The notes beneath the pieces are model-generated. The model searched no databases. It was not told where the DNA came from and worked only from the letters and a program-made list of their open reading frames with translations. Positions 9,224-50,714 of a stretch of 50,714 nt of DNA are shown here, piece by piece. Source of the stretch: Deltaproteobacteria bacterium (GTDB taxonomy: Bacteria; Desulfobacterota; Dissulfuribacteria; Dissulfuribacterales; UBA3076). The DNA is taken from positions 1-50,714 of the forward strand of contig DQXT01000033.1 of the NCBI GenBank assembly GCA_011042225.1. The letters run 5' to 3'. Position 1 is the stretch's first letter. Each line of letters starts with the position of its first letter. Position numbers and translations under genes: made by a program.

Positions 9224-10021
9224 ATGCTTGAGGGCCTTATTCAATACATACCTATAATCCGCTGGCTGGATGTAGTTGACATCCTGGTGGTCTCCTACAT
9301 CATATACCGTGTCATCCTTCTTATCAGGGGAACCCGTGCTGTACAGATGGCAGCGGGGCTGGCTTTAATTATATTAATCTATTTCGCAGCTGGTGAGCTG
9401 AAACTCTTCACTCTTCACTGGCTCTTGGAAATTATCCTTAGCTCTTTATTTCTGCTCATCATAATAGTATTTCAAGATGATATACGCAGGGCGCTGGCCC
9501 AGATGGGTCAGACCCCTTTCCCCAAACTTCGAGTAAAGACCTTCCAGGTCTTGGAGGAAATTGCAAAGGCGGCCACCAGTTTAATAGAAAGCCAAACAGG
9601 TGCATTGATAGTACTTGAAAGGGATGTAGGTTTAAAGGATTACCTTGAGTCAGGAGTAACCATTGACGGGCGAGTAAGTCGTGCCTTGCTCTGTACGATA
9701 TTTGACAAGAGAACTCCATTACATGACGGTGCGGTAATTATTCAAAAGGGTAGACTTTCAGTAGCGGGATGTATGCTGCCTTTGAGCACAAATCCAAATA
9801 TCAGTAGACGTCTTGGTACCAGACATCGGGCAGCTATAGGTATAACAGAGCAGACCGATGCTGTAGTAGTGGTGGTTTCAGAGGAAACCGGCAGTCTTTC
9901 CGTAGCTATTGCAGGAAAAATCACCAGAGACATAGATCTGGGCACGCTTAGGCGTATCCTGCACAATGCCTTTACAAGTGAAAAGACTGAAAAACCATGG
10001 TGGCGAAGGAGGATAATTTAG
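9224..10021 (+). CDS. cdaA: diadenylate cyclase CdaA/DacA
   Basis: Three N-terminal TM helices, DAC motifs PLHDGAVII and GTRHRAA, and VVSEETG. Confidence 0.95.
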   Translation: MLEGLIQYIPIIRWLDVVDILVVSYIIYRVILLIRGTRAVQMAAGLALIILIYFAAGELKLFTLHWLLEIILSSLFLLIIIVFQDDIRRALAQMGQTPFPKLRVKTFQVLEEIAKAATSLIESQTGALIVLERDVGLKDYLESGVTIDGRVSRALLCTIFDKRTPLHDGAVIIQKGRLSVAGCMLPLSTNPNISRRLGTRHRAAIGITEQTDAVVVVVSEETGSLSVAIAGKITRDIDLGTLRRILHNAFTSEKTEKPWWRRRII

Positions 10022-39591: not shown

Positions 39592-41388
39592 ATGAATCCA
39601 TTAGTATCTGAGCATAACTGCGTACGACTACGATTTTCTTCGTGTCTGTTTATTATTGCTTTACTATTAGGTACATTTTTATTAATTGAAATAGAATATG
39701 CACACGCAAAACCAAAAAATTCTGCCCTAAACAGGACGGAATACACCTATCGTCAAGCCAAATCTGAATATAATCGCCTTGCCAGGGATTCCCGGCTTCG
39801 CACCCGCAGAACAGCGTGGATTCAAGTAATTAAAAAATTCAGGACAGTATATCTCACCCATCCCAACGATATTAAGGTTGCCCCCAAAGCCCTCTTTATG
39901 ATGGCATGCTGTTACAGCGAATTATATGGATACTCAGGAGCTATTAAGGATATACATGAGGCTATTGAGCGATATAAGGTCCTGATTGAGAGATTTTCCG
40001 AAAGTTACTTGGCAGATGACGCCCTCTATGACCTCGGAAACCTTTATAACCGTATCGGGAATATTAATCTAGCCCTAAAAGCATGGGAACGGATAATTAA
40101 AGAATACCCCAAAAGAGATAAGGTCGGGCTTGCCGAAAAAAAGTTAAAACTTTTAGGTCCTGTAAAGCGGCAAGAAATAAAAACTCCAAAGCTGGCAAGT
40201 TATAATAATGAAGAATTCTCAAGTATATCCAGCCCGAAGATTTCTCCAGATACAAAACCTGCTGTTGTGCGAGAGGTGAGGCATTGGTCCGCTGCGGACT
40301 ACACCAGGGTGGTCATTGATACAGCAGGCCCTGTATACTTTACAAAAGGATATCTTCCTGCCAATAAGGCCGAACACCTTCCGGAACGTATTTATTTAGA
40401 TCTCAAACCGGCCTTTATAGGAAAAAATTTCAAGAACGACATATCTATAAGAGACGGACTACTTAAGGGGGTGAGAATAGCCCAATTTAACCGTAGTACG
40501 GTCAGGGTGGTATTTGATCTCAAGAACACCCATAAGACAAAGATCTTTTATCTGGAGGATCCCTTCAGGGTAGTAGTAGACGCATTTGGAGAAAACTACT
40601 TTCATAGACCTTCCTGCCCACAACGATCTCCCGAAATACATAAAAAGAGCAGGGCTCAATTAAAAGATGACGATCTTTCTCTCGCGCAACAATTGGGCCT
40701 CTGTGTAAAACGAGTGGTAATAGATGCCGGCCACGGCGGAAAGGATCCGGGGGCTATCGGACCTACCGGCCTGAAAGAAAAAGACGTGGTACTCACGATT
40801 GCAAAAAAAGTGGCTTTACGACTTAAAAAAGACCTGGGTTATCAGGTTATCCTGACCAGAAAAGAAGATCGATTTCTGCCACTTATGCAAAGAACCGCCA
40901 TTGCCAATGCCGAAAAGGCCGATCTATTTTTGTCTATTCATGCAAATGCAGCCCCTAGTAGGGGAGTTAGTGGGCTTGAAACCTACTTTTTAAACTTTGC
41001 CCTGGATAAAGAGGCTATGAATGTGGCAGCCCGAGAAAATGCTACATCAACAAAAAGAATAGGGGATCTTAAGCATATACTAAACGATATAATGAAAAAT
41101 ACCAAAGTGGATGAATCCTCACGCTTGGCAGGCTGCGTGCAGAGGGAGCTTGTAAAAAAGCTCAGAAAACAATATGATAAAGTGAAAAGCAAAGGAGTTA
41201 AACAGGCCCCATTTTTTGTGCTGATAGGGGCGAGAATGCCCTCGGTTCTTGTGGAAGTATCGTTTATAAGCAACAGGCAAGAAGAGAAGCGTCTCAAAAG
41301 CGACCGTTATCTGAGCAGCGTGGCCGATGGGATCGTAAACGGTATTAAATCATATGCCAGCGACACCAAGTTCGCTTATCTACCTTGA
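39592..41388 (+). CDS. N-acetylmuramoyl-L-alanine amidase (TPR + AMIN + Amidase_3, AmiC-like)
   Basis: N-terminal TM/signal segment, TPR-like repeats (APKALF, ADDALY), AMIN segment (VRIAQFNRSTVRVVFDL, DPFRVVVD) and catalytic IDAGHGG, EK, SIHAN and LVEVSF. Confidence 0.9.
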   Translation: MNPLVSEHNCVRLRFSSCLFIIALLLGTFLLIEIEYAHAKPKNSALNRTEYTYRQAKSEYNRLARDSRLRTRRTAWIQVIKKFRTVYLTHPNDIKVAPKALFMMACCYSELYGYSGAIKDIHEAIERYKVLIERFSESYLADDALYDLGNLYNRIGNINLALKAWERIIKEYPKRDKVGLAEKKLKLLGPVKRQEIKTPKLASYNNEEFSSISSPKISPDTKPAVVREVRHWSAADYTRVVIDTAGPVYFTKGYLPANKAEHLPERIYLDLKPAFIGKNFKNDISIRDGLLKGVRIAQFNRSTVRVVFDLKNTHKTKIFYLEDPFRVVVDAFGENYFHRPSCPQRSPEIHKKSRAQLKDDDLSLAQQLGLCVKRVVIDAGHGGKDPGAIGPTGLKEKDVVLTIAKKVALRLKKDLGYQVILTRKEDRFLPLMQRTAIANAEKADLFLSIHANAAPSRGVSGLETYFLNFALDKEAMNVAARENATSTKRIGDLKHILNDIMKNTKVDESSRLAGCVQRELVKKLRKQYDKVKSKGVKQAPFFVLIGARMPSVLVEVSFISNRQEEKRLKSDRYLSSVADGIVNGIKSYASDTKFAYLP

Positions 41389-43125: not shown

Positions 43126-45081
43126 ATGCCTATGTTTTATGTAAATCTAGAAAAACAAAACGAACTTACACAAAAACAGCTATCTGACCTACAGGCCATG
43201 TGGAATAGATGCGCAATGCGCATTGTTCTTTCTACTACGCTTGCAAAAAGCGGTCATCCTGGCGGCTCTCTTTCCTCCCTGCACACACTGCTTGTCATTT
43301 ACAGCATAATTAAACATCGTCCGGAGGAACCCCTCTGGCCTGACCGTGACCGGGTAGTCGTGAGCATTGGGCATATCTCTCCGTGCGTCTACAGCGTACT
43401 CACTGAATTCGGCTATTTTTCAGAGGAAGATTTCCTTACCGAATTCCGTCGTGCAGGTTCATCCTGTGCCGGCCATGTAGAACAAACCATGCCTGGAATT
43501 GAGTGGAATACTGGAAATCTAGGCCAGGGACTTTCAGTAGGTACAGGCATATGTCTTGCCCAAAATCTTATTGGCCGGCCCGGCAAAACGATCGTCCTCA
43601 TGGGTGACGGAGAACAGCAGAAAGGACAGATAGCTGAAGCAAGACGTTTTGCAACAAAGTTCGGACAAGGAAATTTGATAGGTGTAGTCGACAGAAACCA
43701 TCTTCAGATTGGCGGCTCTACTGAAGTTGTCATGCCTGTGCGTGTAAGGGATGAATATACTGCTGCAGGCTGGAACGTATTGTATGTACCGGACGGCCAT
43801 GATTTCCAGGCCATATTCAAGGCCCTGAAAAAGACATGGGCAAATGACGGCCTTATGCCTGACCGCCCCACTGTCCTTATCATGCGTACTGTTATGGGAA
43901 AAGGTATCTCGTTTATGGAGAACAAAGCAAGGTATCATGGATCTCCGTTGCCGGAGGAAGATGCCAGAGCAGCTTTGAGAGAACTAGGTCAAGATCAGGG
44001 CCTACTTGAGATATGGTTAAAGAACAGGGCTACACACAAAATAAAAGGCAATAACAAAAAATCAGAAATCAATTATCCATTTATTGACCCCGGAAAACCC
44101 ATTGTCTACGGTACTGAGATCAAAACAGATTGCCGTTCTGCATATGGCGCGGCATTAAAGGATCTAGCACAAAGAAACAATGTCCCTGGTTCTGCCCCAA
44201 AAATTGTAGGATTTAGCTGTGATCTGGAAGAATCAGTAAAGATGCAGGGGTTTCACAGCGTTTCACCCAGCGCCTTCATAGAGACAGGCATACAAGAGCA
44301 TCACGCAGCTACCTGTGCTGGAGCAATAAGCAGGGAGGGATTTGCTACCTTCTTAAGCACCTTTGGTGTCTTTGCTACGGCAGAGACTTATAACCAGCAC
44401 CGCTTAAATGACCTCAATAAAACCTATCTTAAAATTGTATCTACTCATTTGGGACTGGACGTTGGAGAAGACGGCCCAACCCATCAAAGTATAGACTATG
44501 TGGGACTCTTCAACAACCTGTTTGGCTTCTCCATATTCATGCCTGCGGATCCAAATCAAACCGACAGGATAGTCCGTTATGTAGCTATTAATCCCGGCAA
44601 TGCCTTCGTGGGTATGGGAAGGTCCAAACTATCAATTATTACCACAAAGGATGGGAAACCCTTTTATGATGCGGACTATGTATTTCGGCCTGGACATGCA
44701 GACTGGTTGAGACAGGGAGACAAGGCCACTTTTCTTACCTATGGCTCAGCCACATCTCAGGTTCTCAAGGCATGTTCAATTCTTGACTCAGCGGGTCTAT
44801 CAGTAGGGGTACTCAATATGGCATCTCTCAAACCCATAGACGGAAAATCAATTTTGGAGGCAGCCAAGAAAGGACCTTTGATAACGGTTGAAGACCATAT
44901 AGCCCATACGGGTTTAGGGGCCATAGTAGCGCAGGAACTTGTAAGTGCAGGTGTGCATCAACAACTCCTCACTATAGGTGTGACACACTATAGTTCTTCA
45001 GGTAAACCGGATGATCTGTATCGCCATCAGCACCTTGATGCTAAAAGTCTTGTCAAAAAGGTAAAAAAACTCTTAAGTTAG
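43126..45081 (+). CDS. tkt: transketolase
   Basis: SGHPGGSLS, RDRVVVS.GH, TGNLGQG, GDGE, GIQEHH, GEDGPTHQ and EDH. Confidence 0.93.
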   Translation: MPMFYVNLEKQNELTQKQLSDLQAMWNRCAMRIVLSTTLAKSGHPGGSLSSLHTLLVIYSIIKHRPEEPLWPDRDRVVVSIGHISPCVYSVLTEFGYFSEEDFLTEFRRAGSSCAGHVEQTMPGIEWNTGNLGQGLSVGTGICLAQNLIGRPGKTIVLMGDGEQQKGQIAEARRFATKFGQGNLIGVVDRNHLQIGGSTEVVMPVRVRDEYTAAGWNVLYVPDGHDFQAIFKALKKTWANDGLMPDRPTVLIMRTVMGKGISFMENKARYHGSPLPEEDARAALRELGQDQGLLEIWLKNRATHKIKGNNKKSEINYPFIDPGKPIVYGTEIKTDCRSAYGAALKDLAQRNNVPGSAPKIVGFSCDLEESVKMQGFHSVSPSAFIETGIQEHHAATCAGAISREGFATFLSTFGVFATAETYNQHRLNDLNKTYLKIVSTHLGLDVGEDGPTHQSIDYVGLFNNLFGFSIFMPADPNQTDRIVRYVAINPGNAFVGMGRSKLSIITTKDGKPFYDADYVFRPGHADWLRQGDKATFLTYGSATSQVLKACSILDSAGLSVGVLNMASLKPIDGKSILEAAKKGPLITVEDHIAHTGLGAIVAQELVSAGVHQQLLTIGVTHYSSSGKPDDLYRHQHLDAKSLVKKVKKLLS

Positions 45082-45479
45082 CCGCCCGAGAAAGGACTTC
45101 GCCGACAAGGGCGGCAGGACTTACATGCGGCTTAGTTTTTTTCTGGTTCGGTTATATTATCATCAGATATAAGATATAGAAGCTATCTATGGATCTTAAC
45201 CATATCTGTCTCAGCAAATCTGAATCACAATTATTGTCATCACAGCCTGTCAAAAAGGCCGCGGCCAATCTCCCTTCCACTCATCGGGACTCTATGAGTT
45301 TGCCTTAATCCTAAGTATTTAGGACCGCCGACATAGCCGGTATCTTACATATAGAAAAGCTTTAATATCTTAAATAATCTTGTCGATAAAAGCTTTAGAG
45401 TCTTAAATCCAGGAGTCTTGGTTGATAGTTCATGCATCTTTGATACAAAAATGCCTTTTATCTTTTGGGGAATTTAACC

Positions 45480-45881
45480 GTGGCTGATCTGATATTGACC
45501 CAATCGGTCCTGGATAAAACCAAAACAGAGATAGAAAACGCCCTTATTAAAGCAGGTGTTAATACTGTTCTCCTTATTGACGAAGCGGGCAATGTTGTGA
45601 CTGCTTGCAAACATAAAACCTGTACTCTTGACACAACTTCTCTTGCTGCACTGGCAGCGGCAAACTTCGGTGTCACTGCACAAATTGCAAAATTGATAGG
45701 AGAAGATGATTTTTCACTCCTGTTCCACAAGGGGAAAAAGGATAGCATACACTTTGCGCGGATAAACAATGATTTGATTCTGGTAACAATATTTGGAGAA
45801 AATGTATCTTTGGGCTTGGTAAGGTTAAGGGTCGCAGAATTGGCAAAAACCATAGAAAAGGCATTTGCCCAAATTTATTGA
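45480..45881 (+). CDS. mglB: MglB-type roadblock/LC7 GTPase-activating protein
   Basis: LLIDEAG, DTTSLAALAAANFG, AKLIGE..FSLLFHKG and LGLVRLRV. Directly upstream of mglA. GTG45480 is the likely start. Confidence 0.9.
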   Translation: MADLILTQSVLDKTKTEIENALIKAGVNTVLLIDEAGNVVTACKHKTCTLDTTSLAALAAANFGVTAQIAKLIGEDDFSLLFHKGKKDSIHFARINNDLILVTIFGENVSLGLVRLRVAELAKTIEKAFAQIY

Positions 45882-45883
45882 AT

Positions 45884-46501
45884 ATGGCGCTGATAAATCT
45901 TAGCAAAAAAGAAATACACTGCAAGATAGTATACTACGGTCCCGGGCGGTGCGGTAAGACCACGAATTTGCTCTATATATATAATGCAATGAACAATCAA
46001 GCCCGAAGTAAGATGCTGACTATTGAGACAAAAGGAGAAAGGACACTTTTTTTTGATCTTCTTCCCTTAAATCTGGGCAAAATAAATGGCTTTAATATAA
46101 GAATCCAGCTTTACACAGTACCGGGCCAAATCATTTATAAGGCTACCAGGAAACTGGTACTTAAGGGTGTGGATGGTATGGTTTTCGTTGCCGATAGTCT
46201 TAAAGTACGTCAGGGAAAAAATATGGAAAGTCTCCAAGATCTACACGATAATCTCCTTGACTACAATCTAAATACAGAAGAAATCCCAATCATTTTGCAA
46301 TTCAACAAACGTGATCTTGTGCCTACACCCATACCGACGCTGACTAAAGAAGAGCTTGAAATAGATCTGAACAGTCAACTTAATACAAAGGTTTTTGAAG
46401 CGGCAGCTATTAAAGGAATAGGGGTCTTTGAAACCCTGAAAGAAATAAGCAAAAGGACTATCCAATATGTGGCAAGAAAGCATCTCTCAACAAATCATTA
46501 A
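45884..46501 (+). CDS. mglA: MglA small Ras-like GTPase
   Basis: KIVYYGPGRCGKTTNL, ERTLFFD (intrinsic Arg), LYTVPGQ, GVDGMVFVADS and NKRDL. Confidence 0.93.
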   Translation: MALINLSKKEIHCKIVYYGPGRCGKTTNLLYIYNAMNNQARSKMLTIETKGERTLFFDLLPLNLGKINGFNIRIQLYTVPGQIIYKATRKLVLKGVDGMVFVADSLKVRQGKNMESLQDLHDNLLDYNLNTEEIPIILQFNKRDLVPTPIPTLTKEELEIDLNSQLNTKVFEAAAIKGIGVFETLKEISKRTIQYVARKHLSTNH

Positions 46502-46600: not shown

Positions 46601-48253
46601 ATGGATCAGACAAATAAAAACCCTGATCCCGAAGACTTCGCTAGAAACGTAGAAAGTACTATTGATGAACTGTTTTGTGTATCACGGCAGATAGAAATAG
46701 ACCCTTTGACTAATGAAATTAAGGACTTATCTCAAGATAAAACAGATAAAGGGCAGGGATTTCAGGTTATAGACCAGAGAGAAAAATATCCTGAAGAAAT
46801 CAAGCCTTCAGATACCATAGAGACAGGAGAACCTGTTGAACACATAGAAAATACCATTAACGAAAAGATATTGGAATCAAGCTCAGATCTGGAGCATGAG
46901 GGAAAAGATACTAAAGATGTGAATTTGGAACAACAACTCAGCCAACTCAACCAACTCTTGTTGACCTTGGAGTGGGAGGTCGACCAGATACAAGCAGTAT
47001 CAGCTAAAAACCTGGTAGAGACAATACTGAAAAATCCAGAGATAGAGGCAGATAAAGATCTCCACGAACTGCTCAGTCTTATGATAAGACTCCTTGAAGG
47101 GATGGCGGATCATCCTGAAAAAATGCCTACTTTCAGCCCAGAGGTCCTGAAAAGAGGTCTTGACACCTTTAAAAACCTTGTTTGGAATGAAGGGCGGGAG
47201 CCAGGGGCTAGAAAAGAGGCCTTTAGATCCATAAAAAAGGAACTTGAATCGGCAATAGACATGGATATAAGCGAAATTGACCGCGAGATATCCTTGAAGG
47301 CGGACTCAGAACACCATATTGAAGAGGTCGATGAGCTTGAATCCGGGGCTAAATATGATGCCCAAAAAAACGCCCAAAAAGAGAAAACTTCCAATCTACA
47401 GGGACATATCGATAATTCCATTCCAGAAACGAACATACAAGAAAAAGCGGCATCCATTGATCCGGAGTTACTTGAACACTCGGTGCTTGTACGTGCGGTC
47501 AAATCCCATATCAAAATCCTTGATGACTGCATAAAATACATTCTACCGGTTGAAAAGCTCCTTGCCCAGACTCAGGGGATGGAAAAACTACATCATTTTC
47601 AGCAAAATATTAAAAACAGGCTTGAAGAACAAAAAAAGATATTGGGAAAGGCATTAAAGGGCGATTACGAACCATCTTCTGATATGAGTAATTATGCTAC
47701 TCAACGGATCGAAGACATTACCATAGAAATTGACAAAACAGAAACGCCTCCGGTGAGCACTTCCTGCCCGTGGAATGAACTTTTGACTGGCCAGTGGAAC
47801 CAAAAGCAAGTTGCATTTATACCTGAACATGTCGCATTTGCAGGTCCCATCCCCTTTTGGGCAAAAAAAGGATTTAAAAATCTGAAAACTTTTAAATTAA
47901 AGAAACTCAAGACCTGGCCATGGACAAAAATTCAGCCAATGATGCATGGGAAATTGTCAAATCGGAAAGAATCGGAGCTTATAAGGCTCGAATTCCCGGT
48001 ACTACAAAAATCGATTTCATCTTCCGATCAGTCTCAGCTCTCAAACCCGACTTTATTGGTCCTCTCTAATGAAAATAAAGGGCTGGTTCTAATGCTGGAT
48101 ACTCCGCTAGAATCCATTTCTATAACTCCTGAGTATTCCTGGGAACCATCCACAAATAACAATGGACAATGGGTTGGCAACCTGGGTATAGATAACAAAC
48201 AGATATCCGTGGCAACACTGGAAAGCCTTTTAAATACACTGCCAAATGAATAA
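46601..48253 (+). CDS. hypothetical protein: acidic linkers, Hpt-like helical bundle, coiled hairpin and CheW-like C-terminus (by eye)
   Basis: 550-aa ORF with AGGAG SD whose stop overlaps the next start. Domain calls are pattern inference only. Confidence 0.75.
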   Translation: MDQTNKNPDPEDFARNVESTIDELFCVSRQIEIDPLTNEIKDLSQDKTDKGQGFQVIDQREKYPEEIKPSDTIETGEPVEHIENTINEKILESSSDLEHEGKDTKDVNLEQQLSQLNQLLLTLEWEVDQIQAVSAKNLVETILKNPEIEADKDLHELLSLMIRLLEGMADHPEKMPTFSPEVLKRGLDTFKNLVWNEGREPGARKEAFRSIKKELESAIDMDISEIDREISLKADSEHHIEEVDELESGAKYDAQKNAQKEKTSNLQGHIDNSIPETNIQEKAASIDPELLEHSVLVRAVKSHIKILDDCIKYILPVEKLLAQTQGMEKLHHFQQNIKNRLEEQKKILGKALKGDYEPSSDMSNYATQRIEDITIEIDKTETPPVSTSCPWNELLTGQWNQKQVAFIPEHVAFAGPIPFWAKKGFKNLKTFKLKKLKTWPWTKIQPMMHGKLSNRKESELIRLEFPVLQKSISSSDQSQLSNPTLLVLSNENKGLVLMLDTPLESISITPEYSWEPSTNNNGQWVGNLGIDNKQISVATLESLLNTLPNE

Positions 48254-50603
48254 TACTTCAACTTCAGACAATCTAAAATCCATGTTAGCGGAAGCCGATC
48301 TTTATTATAGTCAAGGTCTTAACGAAGAGGCCCGCATTATCTGTTTAAAGCTTCTACAAATGACCAGTGATAAATCTGATCCTGTCCGTACTGAAATAGA
48401 ATCCCGTCTGAAAAAACTCCAGTGTGATGGTATGGAAACAGTACAATCGGGAGAGATAAATTTTACCACCAGCCCTGAAGATCTCAAACCTGAAGATCTC
48501 AAAGAATATCAGGACAATAAATTCAGTAGTTGTATAGGTCTCATAGATGCCGGATTTTATTTGGAGGCCATAGAAGAATTAAAGACCTTACTTGAAGCAG
48601 AATACAGACCAGGGATAATTCGAGCAAAGATCGGAGAATCATATCTACAGATGGATATGCCCTTTGAGGCACTTGAATATCTGGAAAAAGCGCTTGAAGA
48701 TACGCAACTGTCCAAAGACGAAAGGCTGGATGTACTATATCAGCTAGCACTTACCCATGAACGAACCGGGGCGATGCCTAAGGCCATCGAGGCGCTTGAA
48801 CAAATCATCCGCCTTGATCCTGCATTTAGAAATGCCAAACAGAGGCTTGAGGGCCTTTCCAAAACCGCTCAGGAATATGGCCGTTTCTATTATCTGATTC
48901 GCAATCAGTCCATCTCTAAGGAACAACTCAGCAGGACCAAAGAATTGGCCAAACAAGGGAAAAAATCCATAGAAAGTATTCTGCTAAACCAGTTTGGCGT
49001 AGACAAAATGGAACTCGGCCGCTCACTTGGCGAATATTACCGATGCCCCTTTGTGGAATTTGACGAACTGGAAGTAGGGAGTACACCTTCTTGCGTGCGC
49101 GGTATCAAAGAACACTTTTTCAGGACCAATTCCTGTGCACCTATTCGCGAAAAAGCGGGGACCCTTATAGTTGCATTAGATAACCCCCATGATTTGGCAA
49201 AGACGGACAATATTAGAAGGGTCCTGAAAGCCAAAAATTTTCAATTTGCAGTAGCACTAAAGGAAGACATCAACAGATTCATAGACTATTTCTATGGAAA
49301 ATATTCTGCAGAAGGATCTGATGATGATGTGTTTGAGCAACTGGAACTGGTTGAAGAAGATTCGGAATTCGAAGAAGAGGATTCCAGCTTAGCATCAGAG
49401 GCCGATAGCGTAGTAGTCCAGATAGCCAATAAAATTATAGAGGATGCCTTTCAGCGCAGGGCCTCTGATATACATATTGAAAGCCTAGCAGGCAAACGGG
49501 GTGCCCTCGTCCGCTTCAGGATTGATGGCGATTGCATGCGATATCAGACAATTCCATATAACTATAAGCGGGGCCTATTATCCAGAATCAAAATCATGTC
49601 TAATCTGGACATTGCCGAAAAACGCCTGCCTCAAGATGGAAAAATAAAATTCAAGACCCGATCCGGCAAACCCCTGGAACTTCGTGTAGCCACACTCCCC
49701 ACAACGGAAGGCAATGAAGATGTCGTACTGAGGTTATTGGCCTCTTCTGATGCTATGCCAATTGATCGCATAGGGCTCCTTGATCAAAATCTTAGTCAGC
49801 TAAAGCAGCTTTTGCAGTTGCCTTATGGACTTATACTGGCAGTCGGTCCTACCGGATCAGGAAAAACAACCAGTCTGCATTCTGCACTTGGCTATATAAA
49901 TCGACCTGAAAAGAAAATTTGGACAGCCGAAGATCCTGTAGAAATCATGCAGGAGGGATTGCGTCAGGTACAGGTAAGGCCCCATATTGGTCTGACCTTT
50001 GCTCGGGTTCTCAGGGCCTTTTTAAGGGCCGATCCGGATGTAATAATGGTAGGCGAAACCCGAGATGAAGAAACTGCTATAACAGCAATAGAGGCATCCC
50101 TGACAGGGCATTTAGTCTTTTCAACCCTCCACACCAATTCCGCCCCTGAGACAGTTACAAGGCTTTTAGGGATGGGAATGGACCCTTTCAACTTTGCTGA
50201 TGCCCTTTTAGGCGTCTTGGCTCAAAGGCTTGTAAAAAGACTCTGCCCTAAGTGTCGTGAGGCATATCAGCCTGATGACAATGAAAAAAAACATATTCTA
50301 CACGAATACGGGTTTCATCCGACTCATCCCCTAGAACTATCAAAACTGAACGACATAACACTTTATCGGCCCAAGGGTTGCCAATATTGCAACAGGACCG
50401 GTTTCCGAGGCAGGCTTGCAATTCACGAACTACTCATATCGGATGACGGTCTCAAAAAACTTATACAAGATAAAAGGCCTGTGGGAGAGATCCGAGAATA
50501 TGTCATGAACCAGGGAATGTTTACCTTAAAACAAGACGGTATACAAAAGGTCTTAAATGGAGATACAGACCTCAAGCAGATTAAAGCAGCCTGCATAAGG
50601 TGA
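48246..50603 (+). CDS. PilB/GspE-family secretion ATPase with N-terminal TPR module
   Basis: ASDIHIE, RFRIDG, LDIAEKRLPQDG, Walker A GPTGSGKTT, TAEDPVE, LRADPDVIMVGETRD, GHLVFSTLHTN and the CPKC/CQYC Zn site. aa 1-205 are TPR-like. Confidence 0.93.
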   Translation: MNNTSTSDNLKSMLAEADLYYSQGLNEEARIICLKLLQMTSDKSDPVRTEIESRLKKLQCDGMETVQSGEINFTTSPEDLKPEDLKEYQDNKFSSCIGLIDAGFYLEAIEELKTLLEAEYRPGIIRAKIGESYLQMDMPFEALEYLEKALEDTQLSKDERLDVLYQLALTHERTGAMPKAIEALEQIIRLDPAFRNAKQRLEGLSKTAQEYGRFYYLIRNQSISKEQLSRTKELAKQGKKSIESILLNQFGVDKMELGRSLGEYYRCPFVEFDELEVGSTPSCVRGIKEHFFRTNSCAPIREKAGTLIVALDNPHDLAKTDNIRRVLKAKNFQFAVALKEDINRFIDYFYGKYSAEGSDDDVFEQLELVEEDSEFEEEDSSLASEADSVVVQIANKIIEDAFQRRASDIHIESLAGKRGALVRFRIDGDCMRYQTIPYNYKRGLLSRIKIMSNLDIAEKRLPQDGKIKFKTRSGKPLELRVATLPTTEGNEDVVLRLLASSDAMPIDRIGLLDQNLSQLKQLLQLPYGLILAVGPTGSGKTTSLHSALGYINRPEKKIWTAEDPVEIMQEGLRQVQVRPHIGLTFARVLRAFLRADPDVIMVGETRDEETAITAIEASLTGHLVFSTLHTNSAPETVTRLLGMGMDPFNFADALLGVLAQRLVKRLCPKCREAYQPDDNEKKHILHEYGFHPTHPLELSKLNDITLYRPKGCQYCNRTGFRGRLAIHELLISDDGLKKLIQDKRPVGEIREYVMNQGMFTLKQDGIQKVLNGDTDLKQIKAACIR

Positions 50604-50611
50604 GGTAACCA

Positions 50612-50688
50612 TTCAGAGGTTCAGGGTTCAAAGGTTCAAAGGTTACACTGAAAGATGAACATCGAACATCGAACGTCCAACGTCGAAT
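50612..50688 (+). repeat. short tandem 7-8-bp repeats
   Basis: AGGTTCA-GGGTTCA-AAGGTTCA-AAGGTTA followed by GAACATC-GAACATC-GAACGTC-CAACGTC-GAA. Confidence 0.75.
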
Positions 50689-50714
50689 GAAAAACAAACA
50701 CCAAATGAGAAATA

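Follow-up and report, generated by a model that had tools for sequence, protein, structure and literature searches.

A PilB/GspE-type ATPase with a TPR head resembling the SgmX C-terminus, encoded beside mglB and mglA in a deltaproteobacterial genome

The stretch of DNA described here is a whole contig of 50,714 nt (DQXT01000033.1, contig C3 of assembly GCA_011042225.1; hereafter the window) from a deltaproteobacterium of the order Dissulfuribacterales, whose 2.05-Mb genome is assembled in 153 contigs and is 96 % complete. After a gap of ~380 nt that separates them from the transketolase gene (43126–45081), four genes follow one another on the + strand: mglB, mglA, a gene for a 550-aa scaffold protein and a gene for a 785-aa ATPase of the PilB/GspE type, which carries an N-terminal head of tetratricopeptide repeats (TPRs) and is called the TPR-ATPase below (Table 1). 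The four genes are predicted to be co-transcribed as one operon, because mglB and mglA overlap by 4 nt, the scaffold and ATPase genes overlap by 8 nt, and no terminator-like site is found on the + strand from 45000 to the end of the contig at 50714. A promoter scan was uninformative, with 8 promoter-like sites versus 11.4 ± 2.7 in shuffled sequences. An earlier note, made from the letters of the window alone, had drawn attention to positions 48246–49040, which encode aa 1–265 of the TPR-ATPase; the full open reading frame runs from 48246 to 50603.

Table 1. Genes of the predicted operon and features of the scaffold protein and the TPR-ATPase (window coordinates).
Feature	Position in protein	Window coordinates	Strand	Evidence
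mglB, encoding a GTPase-activating protein of the Roadblock/LC7 type; 5′-most gene of the predicted operon		45465..45881	+	Pfam Robl_LC7, E 2.4e-11
mglA, Ras-like polarity GTPase		45878..46501	+	Family motifs in 30-row alignment
Putative CheA-like scaffold without kinase domain, 550 aa		46601..48253	+	AlphaFold2 model and Foldseek
Scaffold: N-terminal motif IDxLF/IEIDPLTNE	N-terminus		+	Sequence
Scaffold: helical bundle	aa 109–225	46925–47275	+	AlphaFold2 model
Scaffold: helical hairpin	aa 288–351	47462–47653	+	AlphaFold2 model
Scaffold: CheW-like beta domain	aa 390–545	47768–48235	+	AlphaFold2 model, Foldseek
TPR-MshEN-PilB/GspE ATPase, 785 aa; last gene of the predicted operon		48246–50603	+	Open reading frame
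ATPase: first TPR-like helix pair and third helix	aa 5–60	48258..48425	+	Model helices 5–22, 26–39, 46–60
ATPase: variable disordered linker	aa 61–81	48426..48488	+	pLDDT < 50 at 62–72; unconserved
ATPase: three TPRs and start of capping helix, ending DPAFRNAKQRLEGLS	aa 82–205	48489..48860	+	Model: six helices, 82–190
ATPase: MshEN_N-type four-helix bundle, both c-di-GMP motifs replaced (GRFYYLIRN..., KSIESILLNQFGV...)	aa 206–265	48861..49040	+	Fold match
ATPase: C-terminal half of MshEN / GspE-N1 domain	aa 265–351	49038..49298	+	Pfam PF05157, E 1.4e-14, positions 1–85 of 90
ATPase: PilB/GspE-type ATPase core (N2 and C-terminal domain)	aa 385–779	49398..50582	+	Pfam T2SSE

Along the TPR-ATPase, the TPR head (aa 5–205) is followed by an MshEN fold (aa 206–351) and by the PilB/GspE ATPase (aa 385–779). 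In the AlphaFold2 model of the N-terminal part (aa 1–390, 68-row alignment), which has a mean predicted local distance difference test (pLDDT) score of 83, the long helix 197–219 caps the TPRs and continues into a four-helix bundle that reaches aa 265 and is followed by an alpha/beta subdomain to aa 349. The core matches the Pfam T2SSE profile (PF00437) with an E-value of 6.6e-118 (394 bits versus a cut-off of 24.9, profile positions 3–368 of 370), which places it in the PilB/GspE secretion-ATPase superfamily. Residues G534–T542, E604, H622, H629, C667, C670, C712 and C715 are invariant in 63/63 family members, and we take them to be the Walker A box, the Walker B glutamate, the His-box histidines and the four cysteines of the zinc site. 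The closest solved relative of aa 201–785 is PilB of Myxococcus xanthus (3jc8, 389 bits, residues 8–557), followed by Geobacter PilB (379 bits), Thermus PilF (363) and GspE (337), and the alignment with full-length PilB starts at aa 216 of the TPR-ATPase. The PilB equivalog TIGR02538 gives 504.6 bits over aa 216–782 versus a cut-off of 675.65, and the GspE equivalog gives 483.1 versus 630.25. Every NCBIfam equivalog cut-off is missed by all four paralogues of the genome, the TPR-ATPase among them.

The GTPase encoded two genes upstream has only generic Arf/Ras matches in Pfam. Its true start is probably the ATG two codons downstream of 45878. It contains GPGRCGKT, TLFFD, YTVPGQ and NKRD, and the corresponding patterns GPG.xGKT, TLFFD, YTVPGQ and NK.D are invariant in a 30-row alignment, in which it is 49–80 % identical to the mglA genes adjoining related ATPases. 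The residues that we take to define the MglA family, partly after PMC4316618, are all found: the P-loop, the intrinsic arginine, the TVPGQ switch II with its threonine and catalytic glutamine, and NKxD, with a Roadblock GTPase-activating protein (GAP) encoded alongside. The latter, the product of mglB, scores 57.8 bits against the NCBIfam MglB model NF052242, under the cut-off of 200; its homologues, 40–72 % identical by BLASTP, lie directly 5′ of mglA in relatives.

The earlier note had counted about four TPR-like repeats at the N-terminus, and this count is borne out by the AlphaFold2 model, which has a TPR-like helix pair within aa 5–60 and three TPRs at aa 82–190. Conservation reaches 90 % or more at E16, A17, Y20, G24, L25, E28, A29 and L37 in the first of these segments. 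Pfam TPRs are significant at aa 128–193 (TPR_12, 34.0 bits versus a cut-off of 30.1; TPR_2 at aa 162–193, 33.7 versus 27), and the three-repeat block superposes on the designed protein CTPR3 (1na0) with an rmsd of 2.1 Å over 119 columns (Foldseek). Searches of the PDB with the head by Foldseek and phmmer returned generic or designed TPR proteins only, with neither SgmX nor Bd2492 among them.

A phmmer search with aa 1–265 over 1.84 billion representatives returned 816 proteins at E ≤ 0.001. Among the best 150 of these, re-aligned locally, 21 belong to the ATPase family itself, and 50 of the 92 matches of at least 600 aa align no more than 40 aa from their own C-terminus. One SgmX-like protein, P0094 (1110 aa), aligns by BLASTP with head aa 66–205 through its last 137 residues (29 % identity, E 6e-16) and through its N-terminal TPRs at E 1e-3 only. 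P0094 is a member of a Myxococcota TPR protein family of ~900–1150 aa that includes P0288 (1043 aa) of Corallococcus. We take P0288 to be an SgmX orthologue because its relatives at 89 % and 70 % identity carry the NCBI name ‘type IV pili formation protein SgmX’ and because it shares 68 % identity with an M. xanthus protein. Between the profile of the ATPase family and that of the SgmX family, hhalign finds a colinear match (99.4 %, E 9.6e-22, 197 columns) in which aa 6–212 fall on P0288 743–1014, i.e. on its last ~270 residues. The first TPR (aa ~13–45) falls on P0288 ~750–785, the repeat ahead of the last three of SgmX, and the three-TPR block (aa 90–205) falls on P0288 886–1005; a variable, gapped linker stands at the matching site in the SgmX family too.

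In M. xanthus the C-terminal end of SgmX is the M-domain, made of TPR12–14, while TPR9–11 bind FrzS and TPR1–8 activate the pilus (PMC7668184 and PMC9811614, in part); TPR12–14 alone bind MglA-GTP and not MglA-GDP (PMC7668184, in part). Head aa 82–205 of the TPR-ATPase are, judged from these profiles, homologous to the M-domain, and the earlier note's surmise that the three-TPR block resembles the C-terminal module of SgmX holds at this level. The full architecture of SgmX (~1000–1100 aa, 14 TPRs) is absent: the head corresponds to the last ~270 residues of SgmX only, and for that reason we regard the protein as a carrier of the SgmX C-terminal module and not as an SgmX.

The MshEN region superposes over aa ~211–350 on c-di-GMP-bound MshE (5htl_B; TMt 0.71, rmsd 3.2 Å, 135 columns) in Foldseek, with further matches to the GSPII-B domain of Thermus PilF (8pdk_B, TMt 0.67) and to the PilB N-terminus in the Xanthomonas PilB-PilZ complex (7lko_A). 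The bundle helices lie at aa 197–219, 225–238, 242–248 and 254–265 of the model. As modelled, the MshEN fold is complete. The published c-di-GMP motif consists of two copies of RLGxx(L/V/I)(L/V/I)xxG(L/V/I)(L/V/I)xxxxLxxxLxxQ with a 5-residue joiner, and c-di-GMP is contacted by R1, G3, G10 and Q24 of each copy; a relaxed pattern has also been described (PMC5013675, in part). Neither the strict nor the relaxed motif occurs in any of the 63 family members, the TPR-ATPase of the window and members down to 21–24 % N-terminal identity included. In a HMMER alignment to Geobacter PilB (5tsg), motif II reads SIESILLNQFGVDKMELGRSLGEY versus RLGSILIKNGLISEPDLTSFLSKQ in Geobacter, with R1 replaced by S, G3 by E, G10 by F and Q24 by Y. 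Motif I starts GRFYYLI, with R1 replaced by G, L2 by R, G3 by F, L21 by K and Q24 by A, and the spacer between the motifs has 3 residues versus the canonical 5. The NCBIfam c-di-GMP motif model NF053729 (53 positions) is outside the 25 best families of the TPR-ATPase, so that its E-value for this protein exceeds 0.0089. The earlier note's description of MshEN-like spacing without the RLG residues thus holds, and the altered MshEN domain probably no longer binds c-di-GMP.

The replacement residues are themselves conserved, as YGRFYYLIRN and KKSIE in the close family and as S(R/K)(F/Y)DYLL and KSVE in distant members, and E243 is kept in at least 90 % of the alignment rows. The region is best read as a conserved variant of MshEN and not as a decayed copy. 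A decayed, functionless MshEN is ruled out by the conservation of the replacement residues down to 24 % overall identity.

It is very unlikely, in our estimate, that the altered MshEN domain is still a nucleotide receptor, binding c-di-GMP in a new mode or another messenger, and that it exerts the main control while the head adds localisation only. The strong conservation of YGRFYYLIRN, KKSIE and SLSEYY, which suggests a selected function over decay, would be consistent with this possibility, as would the weak matches of 54/63 family members to NF053729 and the PilZ and HDOD genes near distant loci. However, the residues that contact c-di-GMP (PMC5013675, in part) are replaced by bulky or acidic ones in both motifs, and a GSPII domain of Thermus PilF whose motifs deviate is reported to bind c-di-GMP only once reconstructed (PMC12002112, in part). 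The genome, moreover, retains a separate ATPase with canonical motifs. This paralogue, a 794-aa protein of the PilB type, is encoded on contig C12 (29051–31435, − strand; L006:1396–3780), scores 154.8 bits against NF053729 (cut-off 38) and has a weak DUF4388/PATAN-like match at aa 30–67. The same genome is thus predicted to keep a c-di-GMP-reading ATPase alongside the MglA-linked one.

Proteins that combine the TPR, MshEN and T2SSE regions make up 71 clusters in a word-index search; they are mostly of 770–800 aa and have the N-terminal 265 aa conserved. Where their sources are named, they are Deltaproteobacteria, Thermodesulfobacteriota, Thermodesulfobacteria, Thermodesulfatator, Dissulfurimicrobium and one ‘Nitrospiraceae’ metagenome-assembled genome (MAG), and close relatives of the ATPase gene are found in uncultured MAGs of the sulfate-reducer type. 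In an evenly drawn sample of 401 genomes of the phylum, the TPR-ATPase is present in 13/13 genomes of the same order, and the architecture is thus not a product of chance. We kept loci with a near-whole match to the head and frames of at least 650 aa (32 places in 31 genomes), leaving out G018 (aa 73–210 only, in a 599-aa frame) and all shorter matches to the TPRs only or to MshEN only; removing G147, in which the head is fused to a kinase, gives 31 TPR-ATPase loci outside the window genome.

The earlier note had proposed counting the co-occurrence of this architecture with mglAB, and the two prove to be closely linked, within the predicted operon of the window and beyond it. The order mglA-scaffold-ATPase is contiguous in all 11 same-order loci that have upstream DNA, with mglB found by BLASTP in 10 of them, and is repeated in G329, G335 and G383. 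In 27/31 loci an mglA gene is found no more than 9 kb away on the contig that holds the ATPase gene; two others (G259 and G361) begin at a contig end and have mglA on another contig. The mglA gene is far commoner than the TPR-ATPase, being present in 229/401 genomes. In a control set of five genomes, none of the 14 other PilB/GspE-type ATPases is near mglA (single in each genome) versus 5 of the 6 TPR-ATPases. The linked loci span ~20 family-level groups, among which related genomes are not independent. Generic TPR decoration of an ATPase is ruled out by this linkage to mglA, by the colinear match that includes the linker, and by the preference of the long matches for C-terminal positions. All of the refuting outcomes named in the earlier note that computation could address turned out in favour of its reading.

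Binding of MglA to the head was modelled by folding aa 1–355 (68 rows) together with MglA (30 rows), GTP and Mg. The complex scored 0.54 (0.54, 0.55 and 0.53 in the separate runs), and none of 3 controls exceeded 0.01. At least 21 % of the contacts are shared between runs, and the partner pLDDT is at least 78. The mark used is reached by 116/157 solved complexes and by 2/215 mismatched pairs, counts that hold only roughly because our own alignments and riding ligands were used; at scores of 0.60 or below, only 18 of the 157 solved complexes reach the mark, and both passing mismatches fall there. The fold lends weak support to binding between MglA and the head and raises its odds modestly. We infer that MglA probably binds the head.

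The scaffold protein has no Pfam and no NCBIfam match. Its AlphaFold2 model has a mean pLDDT of 72.7, with folded blocks above 90. Foldseek matches its C-terminal domain to CheW (6s1k_C; E 3.5e-4, TMt 0.59) and to the P5 domain of CheA (2ch4), and its helical bundle to the P1 domain of CheA (1i5n_D, E 7e-3). As modelled, the scaffold looks like a CheA without its kinase domain. Genes for methyl-accepting chemotaxis proteins and CheW lie next door in some relatives.

This scaffold offers another partner for the head. It is possible, if unlikely, that the head docks the scaffold or a receiver-domain protein, comparable to the docking of FrzS on SgmX TPR9–11, and that MglA acts indirectly through that partner or is connected by shared transcription only. 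The 8-nt overlap couples translation of the scaffold and ATPase genes, the scaffold gene stays between mglA and the head-bearing gene whatever the output domain, and the SgmX repeat just ahead of the M-domain, with which the head's first TPR aligns, is part of the FrzS-binding S-domain; response regulators of the REC-DUF4388 type also recur near the more distant loci. Against this stand three observations: no part of the head is larger or better conserved than the homologue of the M-domain, the MglA complex fold is above its controls, if weakly, and mglA directly adjoins the ATPase gene in L065 and L068, with no scaffold gene between them.

The head also occurs apart from the ATPase. In G024 and G101, mglA is followed by a gene for a protein of 431 or 432 aa and then by one for a stand-alone all-TPR protein of 478 or 477 aa, whose last 200 residues match head aa 14–206. 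The 431-aa protein of G024, the positional counterpart of the scaffold, shares the scaffold's LTLEWE domain (hhalign 93 %) and matches Pfam CheW (E 7e-18). In G344 (L075:7183–9192) and G147 (L060:6956–9112), mglB, mglA and a gene for a 600-aa or 748-aa protein without a Pfam match precede a fusion of the head to a Ser/Thr kinase. A kinase gene beside mglBA is also known from M. xanthus, where MasK is encoded there; no TPR is mentioned in the portion of PMC3546991 available to us. A search of the window genome with the head query found no second head-bearing protein (1 match only).

Which machine the TPR-ATPase drives may be approached through gene inventories. The window genome encodes four PilB/GspE-type ATPases, namely one on C123 (beside a GspF-like gene), one on C33, the paralogue on C12 and the TPR-ATPase, together with PilT, platform proteins and secretins, two of each, and a single PilM. 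The complete genome G039 encodes only two PilB/GspE-type ATPases, of which one lies beside a GspF-like platform gene and the other is the TPR-ATPase; its second platform gene is PilC-like and stands by itself, surrounded by housekeeping genes, and two PilT and PilM are present. The complete genome G383 has three ATPases and three platforms, in two adjacent pairs plus the same two lone genes. By elimination in G039 and G383, the TPR-ATPase would serve the lone PilC-like platform, and its most likely role is that of motor for the type IVa pilus of the organism.

We consider it distinctly unlikely that the TPR-ATPase instead drives another fibre or secretion machine, or is a non-translocating regulator, under the MglA module. 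Such a role would be in keeping with the absence of pilC, pilM and pilin genes near the ATPase in any locus examined, with scores below all equivalog cut-offs, and with the presence of four such ATPases in the window genome. Against such a role, the catalytic and zinc-site residues are invariant, and among the four paralogues the TPR-ATPase is closest to M. xanthus PilB, with which it aligns from PilB residue 8. In addition, G039 and G383 leave it as the sole ATPase for the lone PilC-like platform.

Several side observations concern the surroundings of the operon. The contig ends 111 nt past the ATPase stop codon, and this short interval contains two tandem arrays, at 50612–50644 (TTCAAAGG x4.2) and at 50657–50687 (GAACATC x4.4), which may be the cause of the assembly break. 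The ATPase gene ends in 32 nt (50572–50603) that are identical to the reverse-oriented extreme end of contig C79 (8259–8290, − strand), but the 111 nt past the stop codon are not shared. An assembly-graph junction or variation between strains probably accounts for the identity, and the operon's downstream context is therefore uncertain. Upstream, an HDOD gene lies divergently 5′ of mglB in relatives (L043:3082–3936, L051:9344–10198 and L070:3702–4553); the transketolase gene occupies this site in the window. Distant TPR-ATPase loci (L068:7212–12118; L071:1899–6963 and 9514–9984) sit in larger same-strand clusters with genes for REC-DUF4388, zinc-ribbon/HAMP, ParA/MinD-like ATPase, REC-HDOD, PAS histidine kinase and PilZ proteins, and HDOD genes are also found near such loci. 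Elsewhere in the window, the gene at 39592–41388 encodes an N-acetylmuramoyl-L-alanine amidase that has TPR_6 and AMIN domains, and OmpA-family and OmpH-like genes come after it. All of them are common envelope genes with no bearing on the operon.

Taken as a whole, we lean towards a reading in which the TPR-ATPase is a pilus extension motor that has given up its former c-di-GMP input and is placed or released by MglA-GTP acting on the M-domain-type head, with MglB as the off-switch and the scaffold bringing input. MglA-GTP would dock on the TPR head, and docking would either recruit the motor to the site of MglA-GTP or release the altered MshEN domain from an inhibitory contact with the head. 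MglB would stop the signal through stimulated GTP hydrolysis, and the scaffold may feed input of the chemoreceptor type into the module. The M-domain of M. xanthus works by unmasking another SgmX domain, and its deletion results in MglA-independent activity (PMC7668184 and PMC9811614, in part).

More tentatively, and with less than even confidence, we put forward a bolder form of this reading. Here the Ras-like GTPase gates the PilB hexamer by direct docking on the head, and the former c-di-GMP pocket (GRFYY, KSIE) has been rebuilt as an intramolecular latch or a scaffold-binding site that passes the signal on. If so, this lineage would have swapped a second-messenger input for a G-protein input at the same regulatory domain, and the same head would have been reused to put Ser/Thr kinases under MglA control.

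A number of points weigh against the reading that we favour. By pairwise BLASTP, the match of the head to the C-terminus of P0288 is not significant (E 0.78), so that the likeness to SgmX is drawn from profiles and the intermediate P0094. Pairwise, the head aligns best (E 0.003) with the N-terminal TPRs of SgmX, and repeat proteins can also inflate profile scores. The complex fold of MglA and the head is a weak pass, and no interface is reported from it. Residual nucleotide binding may persist in some family members, because NF053729 matches most of them at E ≤ 10, at best with 3.2e-7. Two of the 31 loci, that of G077 and one of two copies in G338, are unlinked to mglA, and mglA is not found in G077 (100 % complete) with the window query at E ≤ 1e-30. 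No pilus structural gene is part of the operon, here or in ten related loci examined, and the argument by elimination fails in the window genome because four ATPases face two platform proteins there. The head may, finally, be an inhibitory latch on the altered MshEN domain and not a recruiting handle, because in M. xanthus deletion of the SgmX M-domain gives MglA independence and contact of PilB with SgmX or with MglA has not been detected.

Pili are discussed for cell–cell contact in organisms of the sulfate-reducer type. A compact system of two or three proteins would lend itself to biochemistry and structural work on the effect of MglA-GTP on ATPase activity or hexamer formation, and the TPR-ATPase may provide an example of an MshEN domain repurposed away from c-di-GMP. 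Neither a TPR-PilB fusion nor an mglA-linked PilB operon is described in the literature that was searched. The main text of a survey of prokaryotic Ras-like GTPases (PMC4316618, in part) does not contain ‘TPR’ and names PilB once, in another context; the neighbourhoods in its table S2 could list the linkage.

Precedents exist for the separate parts of the module. The ATPases of the MshE type, such as MshE of Vibrio cholerae (5htl) and the GSPII-B domain of Thermus PilF (8pdk), have the same N-terminal four-helix bundle and C-terminal subdomain ahead of the ATPase; unlike these, the TPR-ATPase has two 24-residue motifs that fail even the relaxed pattern, with key glycines replaced by Phe, Glu and Phe and the shortened spacer. 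In the FimX-PilZ-PilB system of Xanthomonas and Pseudomonas (7lko), a protein partner likewise acts on the N-terminal MshEN-like domain of PilB, but the input is still c-di-GMP, through FimX, and the adaptors are separate and are not TPR proteins. In Bdellovibrio bacteriovorus, which has pili at one pole, the TPR protein Bd2492, called a remote SgmX homologue, binds MglA (PMC7668184 and PMC7519303, in part); it is a separate protein, unlike the fused head described here.

The closest parallel is the MglA-GTP/SgmX/PilB system of M. xanthus, which also includes FrzS and SopA (PMC7668184, PMC7519303, PMC9811614 and PMC11580455, in part) and shares with the predicted operon MglA and its GAP MglB, the SgmX C-terminal TPR module and a PilB-type extension ATPase. 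The M. xanthus genes are scattered, whereas here they would form one operon that includes a CheA-like scaffold. Unlike in Myxococcus, the module predicted by homology to bind MglA is fused to the ATPase, and unlike in SgmX, the pilus-activating TPR1–8 and most of the FrzS-binding domain are absent. The portions of the M. xanthus papers available to us report that no contact of PilB with SgmX or MglA was detected and describe the route by which PilB is brought to the machine by SgmX as unknown, with a mechanism that ‘remains to be discovered’. The TPR-ATPase looks like a natural fused version of this link between a GTPase and a pilus motor, and the fusion of an SgmX module to PilB, encoded next to mglA and mglB, speaks for delivery of the GTPase signal to the N-terminal regulatory region of the motor.

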